The notes under the pieces: model-generated
The model's input: the letters and a program-made list of their open reading frames with translations, nothing else
Told to the model about the DNA's origin: nothing
Databases searched by the model: none
Position numbers and translations under genes: made by a program
Assembly: GCA_012295275.1 (NCBI GenBank)
Contig: CM022668.1
Span: 9,982,001-10,046,000 of the forward strand
Direction: 5' to 3'
Source of the DNA: Chrysomallon squamiferum
Lineage: Eukaryota; Animalia; Mollusca
Length of the DNA: 64,000 nucleotides
Shown: positions 19,501-23,772 of the stretch, piece after piece
How the letters are laid out: the number at the start of each line of letters is the position of its first letter
Position numbering within the stretch: the stretch's first letter is position 1

Positions 19501-22500
19501 TGTGAGAGTGAACGAAATGCCCACACTGACAAGTCTCCACACAGTGTTTCACAGGCTGCACAACCTGATAGCTCGTCACCTCAAACAACTCAACAGACAC
19601 TGGAACGACGAGCACATCTTCCAGGAAGCCAGGAAGATCAACGGAGCCTTCATGCAGCACATCACCTACAAGTACTGGCTGCCAGTAACTCTCGGCCCAG
19701 AAGGAATGAGACAGTCGCGAATCTCGCGGAGGTACTGCTACCAGCCTAGTCTCAATCCAGAAATATTCAACAGCTTTGCCACGGCAGCATTCAGGTTTGG
19801 TCACACCCTTGTTCCACGTGAATTCAAAACAAGTGTCAGTAACCACACACTGCTAGAAAACATGTTCTTCAGAAACTACTTCCTCAGTGTGAACAGCAGC
19901 GCCGGTATCTACAGCATCGTCGATGGTTTGATGAGGAACGGATGCAGTCGGTGTGATAGATACCTGACAAAGGGGTTGACTGATCACCTGTTTGAGACTG
20001 TAGCGAGGCCCATGGACCTGGCTGCCAGGAATGTACAGAGAGGAAGAGATCACGGGTTGCCTCCGTACACAACATACACCAGATTAGCAAGAACAGGTTG
20101 GCCAAGAGTTGACCTCAGCAACGAATGTCTCAGAGCGTACAAGTAAACATGTTATTATTTACTTAGAGCAGTAGTAGTTGTAGTAGTAGTATCTCTACTG
20201 TGATAGGTTTATTCTTTCCAACAGCATTGTGGCTTTCACTTTTTGTTTTCTTGGGCGCCATATTGGATAGGGTATAATAATAATTAAAAAAAATACACAT
20301 AAAAGCAGCAACACTATACAAAAAGCGAGCGAACAATCTCAATGCAAAACCTACTGAGCTGCAACTGCGTATCGAAGACTAAAGGCACTAATTCATGATA
20401 TATAAAGAAAGCTTGTCGTGGCGCATCGCTGTAGTTCGTAACTCGGGACATTATTCGTAAATCGAGACACAAATTGCCCACGATCACGCATCGTAATCCG
20501 ATTTGTTCGTACTTCGAGGTCCCACTGTATATTAAAATTGTTCAGGTAATGAATTACCCACACTGACACTTTAAGTTTATCAGCTAACTTTGTTTCAGTG
20601 ACAGCTATGAGGAGGTGGACCTGTATGTGGGCGGACTCTCAGAGAAGCTATGCAATGGCGGACTAGTGGGTCCAACGTTTTCATACATCATAGGCAAACA
20701 GTTTTACAACCTGAAAAATGGTGATCGATTCTGGTACGAGAATCAAAACAATGGAACAAGATTTACATATGGTTAGTAACACAGGAAAACAGAATTGAAT
20801 AAAAGAGTGATAGTTTAAGTGATTATAATAACAGAAATTTATATATACTCTTATCCATTTGTAGAAAGGGATCTGTTGTAAAGATATGTGCTCATGCATG
20901 TATATATATATATATACAGACAGAGAGAGAGAGAGAGAGAGAGAGAGAGAGAGAGAGAGAGAGAGAGAGAGAGAGAGAGAGAGAGAGAGAGAGAGAGAGA
21001 GAGAGAGAGAGAGAAAGAGAGATATTGACAAGATGATTTTTCTTATTTCAGCTCAGCTACGATCGATCAAACAAATAACTCTGTCTCGAATTATCTGTGA
21101 TGTTCTACAAACTGGGAAAACTCAAATAGATGTCTTCAAGTTGCCATCACGGAAGTGAGAACACAGTTTATACACACATACGTGTTTAGTATGTTTGTGT
21201 GTGTGTCGTATATGTCTGTATTAAAATTTCTCCAAATTTAGTTTTCTCTATTTTTGATGTCTGATGAACATTAGCATACTGGCTGACTTGCAGTCAGATC
21301 ATTTACTTACACATTCATATTTCAGTTAGTACTAAAATAGAAACAATTGCTTTTACTTAGTCATAAAGCATTTCAGTAGAAAGAAATTAATTCCTGTATG
21401 CAACGTATTATTTGAAAGGAGTGTGTGTATCTACCTATCTACATAGAGAAACATATGTGATGTATTAACATTTAAATTTTTGTATCTTCTTATTGTTAGC
21501 ACTAAAATTAATTTGCTAAACAAATTTTAGTGTAAAAGTCTTCATATCGCTCATCTGGAGACATTGGAACCAAAGAAACATGAGGTACTAGAACCATGAT
21601 GAAATTAGAAAAATGTGTTGTCATCATCTTTTGGTGTGTGTGTTATGCTGTCTTTCGAGACCAAATGTAACCCAAAGATGGAAAAGCATTCAGTACAACA
21701 TCATTTACAAAAGTGTAGGTTTTATATATGTCGAAAGTGAAAGGATTAATACATTCATTGTACAGAATGTCTACATCACATTTTGGAAAATCAGTTTTGG
21801 TCAGTTTCGGAATGAGAAAATTTCTGTTTGTTATATTTAAGAGATCATCAATGTCGTACAATCATACTATCTTGTAAGAGTCGACACAACGACCTTCGTC
21901 CATGTGGACGTAGAGATCGTACGGGGTGTTGAAATCTAGTCGTTTATCAAAGTATTCGACGCCGAAGCCATCGAGGAATTCGCAATCCGCTTCTTCCCGT
22001 AGATCGATGCCTTGGTCTTTGAAGGAGTCTGCAAAAACCACCCACATCTTCGGATTTGGGAATTTGGCGTCTGTCAGAAATGCCTCCAGTGTCATGGCAT
22101 CTTCGCATATGTTGAATCGCCAGATTCTGTTTTCGATGGCCTTGTTGTCTTCCATTGTCAATCCGATGGACGGAGCGTTGTTAGAACAGATCATAACCGG
22201 TGTCTTTCGGAGTAACTGAGGAGGTCGACACTTTATTTCCACTTCGGCATCGTTGCCCCTCAACAGACTGTTGTAGCGCTCCACCGTAGCTTCGGTGATG
22301 TTGGCTTCGTCGATAAGAATCAGTCTTTTGTTGATGCATGTCTCGAAAGCAAACCGTTCGTGCTTGCCTGTCCGACAGATCGCAATCGGAGGAAGCAGAG
22401 TGAACGGTTCGATGAACCAGTAGGATTTTCCGACCGTCGAAGGACCTTGAACGAAAATTCAGCTTTTGGAGACGTGCAACTTCAAACCAGCCAGACACCT

Positions 22501-23772
22501 GTCGGGGATGTTTTCGTTTCGCAGATAGTCAATGCCGCCAAACCAGCCAGACACCTGTCAATGAACGAGCCAAACTCTCGCTCACCCATTGCTGCAAGGA
22601 GTTCCTTGACGATGCGTTGGTAATTCGGATTCGTCTTGATGTATTTGAATCCACCCAGTTTCCCGGGTCCCGTCTTTTCACATATATCGTCGGAACGTTG
22701 TATTGTTGCGCATAATCCAGTCGACCAGTGCCTTTTCGTTCGTCGCTTCTGACGCCTCCAACAAACATTCAACGATGTCCGTGAACTTGCATTGGTTGTC
22801 ATTAAACTTGAGTTTCTTTATGTTGCTAAGCATTGATTCGACGTCGTATTCACCGCTTTCGAATTCTTGCAGCAAATTAACTTTGCGCACTGTTTCTATT
22901 CCACTCTTCTCTTCCGACGAACGACGACGATCACCCACAATCTTTCACGATTCAGCAACGACCTCTGGACTGGACGGCGGTTCGTCGTTTTGCACTTCGG
23001 GTTCACCTTCAAAGTCGTTGCTTGTCGAGGCTGTTTCGAAATCGTTATCTGGATCTTTTTGTTGCACGGTTAGCCAAGAGTCGGCTGCGCTCCATTCCTC
23101 AGCTTCATTCAGCGACAGTAGATACGTCTTCGTTAAAGTCTCCAGCTTGACTGATGAACAGCGACGAAAGTTGCTGCTTTTGTAGCGCTAAGCTCCGCCC
23201 ACTTTGGCTCATGCAATATCGGAAGTACCATAGAGTTATTTCCCGAAGTTCAAACATAACATAAGGAACCTGACTACGGCAACGCGAATGACAGCATAAC
23301 ACACACACACACACACACACACACACACACACACACACACACACACACAAAAAGATGATGACAATACATTTTTCTAATTTCATCATGGTTCTGGAATCTC
23401 AGGTTTCTTTGGTTCCTGTGTCTCCAGATGAGCGATCCGAAGACTTTTAACCGACGGAGTTGAAGATGTTACGTGGAAGACGACGACAACGACGCCAGCG
23501 TTTGTCAGCAGAGGTTCAGCGTTAGCCCCCTGCCTCCGCGGACGTCTTCGTCGTCTTCCACGTAACGTCTTCAACTCCGTCGGGTAAAAGTGTTCGGATC
23601 GCTCATCTGGAGACACAGGAACCAAAGAAACCTGAGATTCCAGAACCATGATGAAATTAGAAACATTTTCTTTTCTTTACTTCATGCTTTCAGCAACCCT
23701 GTCGTTTTCTGTTCAAGCGGAATGATTCCACACATGGATTTTTCTGCATGGAGAGAGAGACCAGCCACGTGA
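13584..23772 (+). CDS. Secreted animal heme peroxidase (peroxinectin/chorion-peroxidase-like). 12 exons: 13584-13647, 14079-14157, 16263-16384, 16868-17050, 17469-17529, 18049-18143, 18885-18995, 19143-19241, 19497-20142, 20599-20771, 21052-21154, 23694-23772
   Basis: Signal peptide [43 protein letters not shown]; distal His [49 protein letters not shown]; proximal His [51 protein letters not shown]. Phases are consistent and I saw no stops. The first two exons are the least certain. Confidence 0.93.
14480..15600. repeat. AT-rich degenerate tandem repeat (~21-23 bp) in peroxidase intron 2
   Basis: Many copies of TTTTAA(C/T)ATAATGTAAACA(C/T)A. Confidence 0.8.
20400..20527 (-). mobile_element. 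Truncated pogo/Tigger-like DNA transposon end in peroxidase intron 9
   Basis: Minus strand begins TA|CAGTGGGACCTCGAAGTACGAAC, resembling Tigger/pogo TIR starts with a TA target site. The segment is CpG-rich with repeated TACGAA motifs. No second TIR found. Confidence 0.55.
21532..21656. repeat. Left inverted terminal repeat of the parvovirus-like element (hairpin part missing)
   Basis: GTAAAAGTCTTCATATCGCTCATCTGGAGAC...GAACCATGATGAAATTAGAAAAATGTGTTGTCATCATCTTTTGGTGTGTGTGTTATGCTGTC is the inverse of 23285-23449. Confidence 0.9.
21643..23190 (-). pseudogene. NS1/Rep-like superfamily-3 helicase, disrupted
   Basis: One frame from 22458 downward reads [12 protein letters not shown] (Walker A) ...[16 protein letters not shown] (Walker B) ...[13 protein letters not shown] (B') ...TPVMICSNN (motif C) ...AIENRIWRF (Arg finger). 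This is the parvoviral NS1 motif order and spacing. In-frame TGA at 22945-47, 22459-61 and 21862-64; frameshifts near 22680 and 22500. Confidence 0.85.
23371..23663. repeat. Terminal palindrome/hairpin: arms 23371-23486 and 23548-23663, with a GC-rich, imperfectly paired 61-nt tip
   Basis: Arms of ~116 bp are reverse complements with 3 mismatches by manual comparison. Confidence 0.95.

Follow-up and report, generated by a model that had tools for sequence, protein, structure and literature searches.

The locus examined here raises the question of how a hairpin-ended, virus-like insert came to lie within an animal gene, and what it had been before. In the 64,000-nt stretch of Chrysomallon squamiferum contig CM022668.1 that was analysed (positions 9,982,001 to 10,046,000; hereafter the window, with positions counted from its first letter), an insert of 2,135 bp (21532-23666) lies in antisense orientation within the last intron of an animal haem peroxidase gene. 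The original prediction proposed either an integrated defective genome of an uncharacterised parvovirus-like virus or one copy of a mobile family with terminal inverted repeats (TIRs). Our analysis supports the former, considering the NS1-type helicase, the unnamed nearest relatives and the junction found in public sequencing runs. The insert belongs to the endogenous parvoviral elements and is neither a complete parvovirus nor a DDE transposon. With a probability of about 0.7, it is an inherited, doubly deleted fossil of a parvovirus-like genome that was end-joined at a chromosome break and is now decaying neutrally in the intron. This reading is carried by the anatomy of the insert, its helicase, the lack of room for a nuclease or a capsid gene, a left junction shared between runs and a neutral pattern of sequence differences.

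Extent and terminal structures of the insert

The insert differs clearly from its surroundings, with a GC content of 45.5 % versus 30.7 % in the remaining window and an observed/expected CpG ratio of 1.21 versus 0.68, in agreement with the predicted GC- and CpG-rich insert of around 2.1 kb. Its right end was placed at 23666 instead of 23663, i.e. still close to the splice acceptor as had been stated, 27 nt before the last exon (23694).

The bounding inverted repeats and their extension into a hairpin were confirmed as well. Positions 21533-21643 pair in inverted orientation with 23339-23449 (91 % over 111 nt), and the match extends to around 21657/23285, bridging a (CA)25 run on the right side. 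The hairpin arms (23368-23491 and 23543-23666) comprise 124 nt each with six mismatches. The predicted fold has an energy of -154.7 kcal/mol (z -28), a stability equalled in 0 of 100 shuffles, and the longest perfect inverted match measures 71 nt, compared with at most 18 nt in 200 resamples. Taking the ITR (inverted terminal repeat) anatomy given in PMC12297876 as a reference (this and all other papers are cited as far as their available text goes), the claim that both ITRs are present holds for the right one, which is whole, while the left one is truncated to 126 of around 382 nt, stops inside the stem and lacks the apex. The two arms of the right ITR mutually differ at 3 of 83 sites, and the left arm differs from the inner right arm at 9 of 83. 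In having palindromic hairpin ends, or remnants thereof, the insert agrees with a Parvoviridae-derived endogenous element.

The branching predicted for the apex differs between the two strands, and a clean T- or Y-shaped apex was not recovered in folding predictions of the right hairpin. Rfam gave no match at the gathering score in 21200-24000. Short GAC/GTC repeats occur in the stem beside the apex (23450-23495 and 23545-23580); we presume, by analogy, that they are placed like the Rep-binding iterons of other parvoviruses.

The only candidate for a target-site duplication, a 5-nt T-rich match at slipped boundaries, was rejected as chance. A TIR (DDE) transposon was likewise rejected: Pfam gave no transposase match, there is no credible duplication and, the left end being truncated, the insert is not flush with its repeats. 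Taken together, one end being an opened palindrome and the other cut back, with no duplication around them, the insert fits the capture of a duplex replication form by end joining.

An NS1-type helicase without nuclease or capsid gene

All superfamily 3 (SF3) helicase motifs had been predicted in NS1 order, and the five quoted motifs indeed lie within one open minus-strand piece of 198 codons (Table 1). In Pfam, this piece scores 41 bits against Parvo_NS1 (cut-off 20), while E1 and DUF5906 remain below their own cut-offs, and its best sequence match in the PDB is AAV2 Rep40 (E 4.2e-9). A profile of 21 relatives ranked AAV Rep (1e-28) before B19 NS1 (2e-20), E1 (5e-14) and large T (0.5). The structure model of one relative, P0002 (pLDDT 78.5), resembled AAV Rep (Z 19) more than E1 (15.7), large T (12.6) and D5-like folds (11), with B19 NS1 also ranking above these three, and its top matches among the viral models of BFVD were NS proteins of Parvoviridae. 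Judging from sequence and model, the helicase is therefore of the parvoviral NS1 type rather than E1, large T, D5 or CRESS Rep; the grouping with D5 considered in the original prediction was not seen. Polintons/adintoviruses and bidnaviruses were rejected as sources, given the DUF5906 score below its cut-off, the lack of a PolB-sized frame in 2.1 kb and the last place of D5-like folds among the SF3 proteins.

A HMMER scan of 1.84 billion representatives with the helicase piece returned 361 matches at E 0.001, five of them far ahead of the rest (E 4e-31 to 6e-21, 36-43 % identity). These five are unnamed proteins of 354-707 aa from run assemblies with contigs of 1.2-3.4 kb, or from contigs of 70 and 161 kb. 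In a careful tree of 43 rows, drawn from 150 listed matches and their cluster members, the insert and the five relatives form a clade (support 95/92); a weaker node (89/78) joins 11 rows including genes of Elysia crispata and Mya arenaria, and the NS1 proteins of the shrimp virus IHHNV and of chapparvoviruses fall apart from the clade. A quick tree of 132 rows, from which 23 rows had been dropped for want of a usable Walker A region, agrees. As both trees hold few named anchors and no outgroup, we claim no subfamily or genus for this lineage, and the predicted ‘densovirus-like’ affiliation was not demonstrated.

Among the NS1-like genes of molluscs (P0078, P0153, P0154 and P0188-P0192), Elysia crispata carries several that cluster at 90 % and lie on contigs of 28-156 kb, two of them being neighbours by locus tag, and Mya arenaria has one on a record of 75.8 Mb. 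A mobile NS1 family might well be sought among these genes.

Further searches added no close relatives. Context scans found no locus in viral contigs (helicase piece, A4, A3, A6 and A7) or metagenome contigs (A2 and A3), nor did a 30-nt ITR word in viral contigs. In word-based homologue searches, none of 459 longer-protein candidates proved related to the helicase piece and, starting from P0002, the outcome was only P0002 itself among 7,996 and 7,994 candidates. The literature searched, mostly excluding subscription papers and without supplements (the tables of endogenous viral elements of PMC5013282, PMC9707805 and PMC13426907 could hold relatives), describes neither this lineage nor any transposon family derived from parvoviruses and devoid of a capsid.

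The four full-length proteins among the nearest relatives join nuclease-type and helicase domains in one frame. In the N-terminal domain of the relatives, an H-x-H motif and a tyrosine are invariant in six of six aligned relatives, and the model of this domain in P0002 (pLDDT 88.7) weakly resembles the HUH domains of AAV Rep, pMV158 RepB and B19 NS1; the N-terminal profile found nothing under E 0.05 among PDB sequences. In a comparison of its single pieces with a profile built from six full-length relatives, the insert matched positions 298-342, 344-389 and 444-604, in this order, and no piece matched positions 1-290 better than E 0.6. In five of the six relatives, H-x-H and Walker A are 313-354 residues apart (in P0009, the pattern caught another H-x-H). 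The insert offers 838 nt between ITR and Walker A, around 145 of which are promoter-like, and only 204 nt between the helicase stop and the left ITR. Therefore, nuclease and capsid are both absent: the insert has no room for a HUH domain, which goes beyond the predicted lack of a clear HUH motif, and none for a capsid gene, as had been predicted. In line with this, Pfam detected no capsid, nuclease or transposase match among the seven other open pieces. Having neither the N-terminal nuclease nor the capsid gene, the insert is not a complete parvovirus.

Upstream of the helicase, an acidic open piece probably represents the linker between the domains; its likeness to the end of the relatives' nuclease domain was not significant (63-357 of 500 shuffles were equally good). 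Just ahead of the kept gene part, 85-130 nt inside the ITR, lie a GC box, a TATA-like and an initiator-like word, recognised by eye; their spacing is usual, and we take them to be a likely promoter.

We propose the following origin. The parent virus would have been homotelomeric and replicated by rolling hairpin. One internal deletion may have reached from just after the left promoter to the linker and another over the capsid cassette, yielding a subgenomic molecule of the defective-interfering kind, which would have kept its cis signals and could have been copied by the NS1 of a helper. What was then joined into a germ-line chromosome would have been a duplex replication form, one end of which was an opened palindrome while the other had been chewed back, and probably no protein is made from it today. 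If a whole genome had integrated and suffered the deletions afterwards, the picture would be the same, so that the order of deletion and integration is indistinguishable.

With both ends but neither nuclease nor capsid, a molecule is unable to copy itself, although a helper can copy it; internally deleted parvovirus genomes of this type are known from older literature, and our literature search returned no paper describing them. Parvoviruses replicate by rolling hairpin and require no cis elements other than the palindromic ends (PMC9707805, PMC11357303); both replication and integration depend on nicking by the N-terminal domain (PMC4944284).

Inheritance, apparent decay and related loci

The stretch was found in nine sequencing runs of one organism (seven samples, three studies), five of which hold at least half of its words, the share in X9 being 0.08. 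Contigs were compared over the insert for runs X1, X2, X7 and X8 (four samples, three studies), of which X1 may be the assembly's own sample. The left junction was spanned by a contig in all four, and the insertion is real, inherited and common to several individuals. The runs differ from the window by 4 % in the flank and by 0-8 % inside the insert; in X7 and X8, the difference is around 4 % in flank and helicase alike. Thus, the insert cannot be younger than the allelic diversity that the host shows at this locus. In X1, two haplotypes are identical over 870 nt (21614-22483) and 7-8 % apart at 22892-23246, a pattern suggesting either a mosaic of old haplotypes or two copies.

Two stops (22945-22947 and 22459-22461) and a frame change between the two middle pieces interrupt the kept gene part. 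No difference was listed at the stop before Walker A in the runs covering it (X1, X2 and X8). At 22484-22538, the window holds 55 letters versus 104 in contigs of X1 and X2, flanked by a 21-nt direct repeat, and contigs of X7 and X8 align there with a 29-nt gap; the window is thus likely an assembly merger of two haplotypes in this part and, being unsupported by the runs, its frame breaks there cannot be counted. In X7, the helicase piece shows 21 listed differences (6 synonymous, 14 nonsynonymous, one to stop; 18 of 19 and 3 of 10 of those on a long and a shorter contig, respectively, entered the test). With a synonymous share of 0.22 expected under neutrality (p 0.30), these differences look neutral, and the insert appears to decay as a pseudogene. 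Further deletions comprise 49 and 36 nt in X7 and 71 nt in X8 (depth 3.2).

In three contigs, the left flank runs on to the last exon with no insert between them. These contigs might be taken to indicate an assembly chimera, i.e. reads of a free virus or contaminant stitched into the intron, as might the wrong or unusual sequence at 22484-22538. We regard this as very improbable: the left junction recurs across the four samples together with host-like haplotype differences, and stops, deletions and microsatellite expansion are not features of a live virus. In addition, the flank bins at 21337-21530 and 23694-23900 (intron end and last exon) are 5-10-fold deep in X1, X2 and X7, the preceding exon (21052-21154) not being elevated. 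Because the window has one peroxidase gene only, the insert-free joints likely stem from paralogues or a duplicated 3′ piece of the gene, and possibly from an empty allele. In the RNA run X8, the insert and the flanking intron are covered at similar depth (3-8), which therefore does not demonstrate transcription of the element.

The window holds one copy of the element. Related loci were sought among the run contigs at 80 % likeness, and at least three (B, C and D; Table 1), matching over 41-50 nt at 81-88 % identity, occur in the same organism. These are therefore diverged relatives rather than sister copies. Read by eye, the loose ends of loci B and C appear to be the Walker A surroundings of the same protein family, while locus D departs from the window sequence just after the initiator-like word. 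Such a break point is as expected if the window copy had lost its start codon and nuclease there; alternatively, locus D could be another segment. One X1 contig, its flanks being unrelated, matches the 35 nt at 22295-22329, which could represent a fragment or be due to chance.

Several loci in one organism might point to an old copy of a low-copy, non-autonomous mobile family, re-inserted in the germ line with NS1 supplied in trans by an intact resident copy, i.e. a parvovirus-derived transposon. Locus C lies in the middle of a contig longer than a parvovirus genome, locus B is also present in the RNA run X8, the sister group includes the clustering Elysia crispata genes on different contigs, and in Echinococcus more than 20 loci have spread within the species (PMC6880638). 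Nevertheless, we consider such a family unlikely. The loci are too diverged to be sister copies, there is no credible target-site duplication, the left ITR is truncated, and the ITR depth in X1 (60-109, versus 55-70 on the left flank and 70 inside the insert) is a hint against a high copy number. The TIR mobile family of the original prediction thus gained no positive support, and the diverged loci are more easily reconciled with a circulating virus lineage that was captured repeatedly and independently than with transposition of the insert.

The insert could also be a faithful segment or satellite of a multipartite parvovirus-like virus, i.e. a helicase-only (‘small Rep’-like) molecule with its own promoter, integrated whole and then decayed, whose nuclease and capsid would have resided on partner molecules with related ends. 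The promoter-like words directly before the kept gene part are consistent with this, as is locus D, which retains the promoter stretch (5 of 41 differences) and shows no other match at 80 % over 2,595 nt on the transcribed side. Moreover, a bipartite parvovirus is known (PMC10267136), AAV produces the nuclease-less Rep52/40 (PMC4944284), and the Logan contigs of the nearest relatives (2.9-3.4 kb) have the size of an NS-only segment. Such short Logan contigs are, however, usually incomplete, and those of wider relatives reach 4.0-4.6 kb. The four full-length relatives carry both domains in one frame, the first open piece of the insert has no in-frame ATG, and locus D is unlike the window upstream of the promoter, whereas segments share their ends; a natural segment is therefore quite unlikely. 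As a speculation, improbable yet worth stating, the insert might be the footprint of an undescribed mollusc-associated lineage with a split replication protein or without a capsid of its own. Its hairpin-ended, helicase-only molecules would take their nuclease from partner segments or resident copies such as loci B, C and D and would move inside a genome or from one to another, in effect a rolling-hairpin mobile element.

Several points also weigh against the preferred reading of a doubly deleted genome fossil. The layout left by the deletions is tidy (ITR, promoter, helicase gene, ITR), and a natural segment would look alike. The five nearest relatives yielded neither a capsid gene nor a whole genome (contigs of 1.2-3.4 kb; the content of the 70- and 161-kb contigs was not seen), so that a parental capsid gene on the same molecule is deduced from the family. 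For the N-terminal domain of P0002, the best Foldseek match was the AAV origin-binding domain at E 0.01, and in VIA (Z 4.2-5.3) an unrelated ferredoxin-like fold did equally well. There is coverage over the right junction, yet it is absent from the listed spanning pieces. Run X5 holds 0.54 of the words yet has no own-copy contig over 22280-23290, possibly due to a record filter, and the neutrality test, with 21 sites from one run, has low power.

Table 1. Coordinates of the peroxidase gene, the parts of the insert and the related loci (strand relative to the window; a dot where no strand applies)
Feature	Positions	Strand	Remarks
Animal haem peroxidase gene	16263..23772	+	Ten exons, AG/GT joints, 556 open codons; An_peroxidase E 2.8e-64, 1.7e-20
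Last peroxidase intron	21155..23693	+	2,539 nt; 404 nt without the insert
Left ITR remnant	21532..21657	.	Inner 126 nt of ~382: stem arm (83 nt) and ITR segment inside the hairpin (~43 nt); apex missing
AT-rich spacer after helicase stop	21658..21861	-	204 nt; cannot accommodate a capsid gene; AATAAA absent from the minus strand
SF3 helicase and C-terminal tail	21862..22458	-	Open 198-codon piece, codons 22458-21865; stop upstream at 22459-22461
Helicase motifs	Walker A 22446-22423; B 22323-22306; B′ 22263-22231; C 22197-22177; Arg finger region 22134-22120	-
Window/run disagreement	22484..22538	.	55 letters in the window, 104 in X1 and X2 contigs; 21-nt direct repeat
Pre-helicase (oligomerisation) region	22485..22944	-	Open pieces in two frames, overlapping; they match profile positions 298-342 (E 0.0018) and 344-389 (E 0.028) in a six-frame search of the insert
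Acidic open piece, likely linker	22948..23140	-	No in-frame ATG; stop at 22945-22947
Promoter-like stretch	23150..23200	-	GC box 23200, TATA-like word 23184, initiator-like word 23154, by eye; 23166-23206 conserved in locus D
Right ITR	23285..23666	.	Whole, ~382 nt; (CA)25 run at 23300-23349
Terminal palindrome, hairpin telomere in opened form	23368..23666	.	299 nt, 124-nt arms, imperfect apex
Pyrimidine tract and acceptor	23667..23693	+	27 nt between insert and last exon
Locus B	matches 22394-22443		Six differences; X1, X2, X5, X7, X8; 2,152-nt contig, 1,752 nt upstream, no promoter match
Locus C	matches 22389-22431		Eight differences; X2, X5; middle of a 9,671-nt contig
Locus D	matches 23166-23206		5/41 differences; X1, X2, X5, X7; 2,710-nt contig, 2,595 nt downstream without further match at 80 %

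Host gene, known counterparts and significance

The peroxidase gene ends with a stop codon at 23770-23772. Since the insertion spared the acceptor, the host gene stays open, and the host likely splices out the insert-bearing intron. The predicted intactness of the gene stands for the catalytic part, while the two most 5′ candidate exons (13563-14157), whose start resembles a signal peptide, could not be brought into phase, perhaps because the gene model lacks a small exon. At 18476-18830, the end of exon 18049-18143 and the intron after it appear by eye to be partly duplicated in tandem. Carrying NS1 sequence in antisense and, 27 nt from the acceptor, a hairpin of 124 bp, the peroxidase pre-mRNA is a possible source of small RNAs.

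Elsewhere in the window, an intronless 400-codon frame (25092-26291, plus strand) has no Pfam match; its best Atlas cluster, with a score of 0.93 and a recognition below the threshold, is unnamed and mostly from Mollusca, and its third match is NERD nuclease-like. On the minus strand, 44618-40120 encodes an nSTAND3 NTPase followed by many ankyrin repeats, with a stop near 42126-42128 and a frame change near 41000, and a second ankyrin-rich gene of similar build lies at 63998-61701.

Parvovirus-related sequences have been reported in molluscs (PMC5013282), shrimp IHHNV insertions lack hairpins and average 851 bp (PMC11357303, PMC12287923), and beetle insertions with all open reading frames have been described (PMC13426907), the available text making no mention of their ends. 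The statement that retained termini are uncommon among such elements is fair, although invertebrate insertions bearing ITRs are not unprecedented (PMC6880638, PMC7527727); no figure for the rate of ITR retention was found in the available text of PMC9707805 and PMC7474932. The closest counterpart is EmuDNV of Echinococcus multilocularis (PMC6880638), with germ-line insertions at several loci per genome that carry ITRs or their remnants, many 5′-truncated NS1 copies and a longest ITR of 370 nt with a 165-nt stem and a 37-nt loop, close to the 382-nt ITR with 124-nt arms found here. In contrast, EmuDNV loci mostly retain the capsid gene VP, are nearly identical and often lie head to tail, whereas our insert is a single, capsid-less, intronic locus. 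Its nuclease loss is internal rather than terminal and its NS1 lineage is different as far as tested, EmuDNV not being in the tree.

The densovirus insertion of Diaphorina citri (PMC7527727) likewise combines ITR-derived sequence with pieces of the NS cassette, no capsid part being described in the available text, and is transcribed mostly in antisense. It is, however, 86 % identical to a living virus, lies in a piRNA cluster, yields piRNAs and is absent in some populations, while our insert has no known cognate virus and sits in a gene intron. The segmented densovirus of Acheta domesticus (PMC10267136) demonstrates that a hairpin-ended, capsid-less NS molecule can be natural; that segment, however, measures 3.3 kb, encodes a whole NS1 of 796 aa and has ends that do not form ITRs, as opposed to 2.1 kb, ITRs and no nuclease here.

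With AAV2 Rep, B19 NS1 and homotelomeric genomes in general, the insert shares the SF3 motifs and fold, the long ITR with a terminal palindrome and a promoter just inside it. Nonetheless, it reaches at most 43 % identity to anything found, has no nuclease or capsid and stands apart from IHHNV and chapparvovirus NS1. The mollusc NS1-like genes (Elysia crispata KAK3709042.1 and others, Mya arenaria XP_052817762.1) form its weakly supported sister group and are chromosomal or on long contigs, in several copies in Elysia, but differ by long C-terminal extensions.

New aspects are therefore the lineage itself, the first terminal structure described for it and the tidy loss of both parts, whereas ITR-bearing parvovirus insertions in invertebrates were already known. 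The insert provides the terminal hairpin, the ITR layout and, probably, the left promoter of a parvovirus lineage that is unclassified and so far represented by unnamed protein records only, ties this lineage to a molluscan germ line, and illustrates clearly, in a natural case, how a parvovirus genome with two deletions and bounding ITRs can lie in a chromosome. As an immune-type gene has in its intron an RNA hairpin of 124 bp and viral sequence in antisense, a test for small RNAs is easy. If true, a helicase-only lineage would amount to a eukaryotic mobile element of a new kind, or to a second way in which parvoviruses became segmented.

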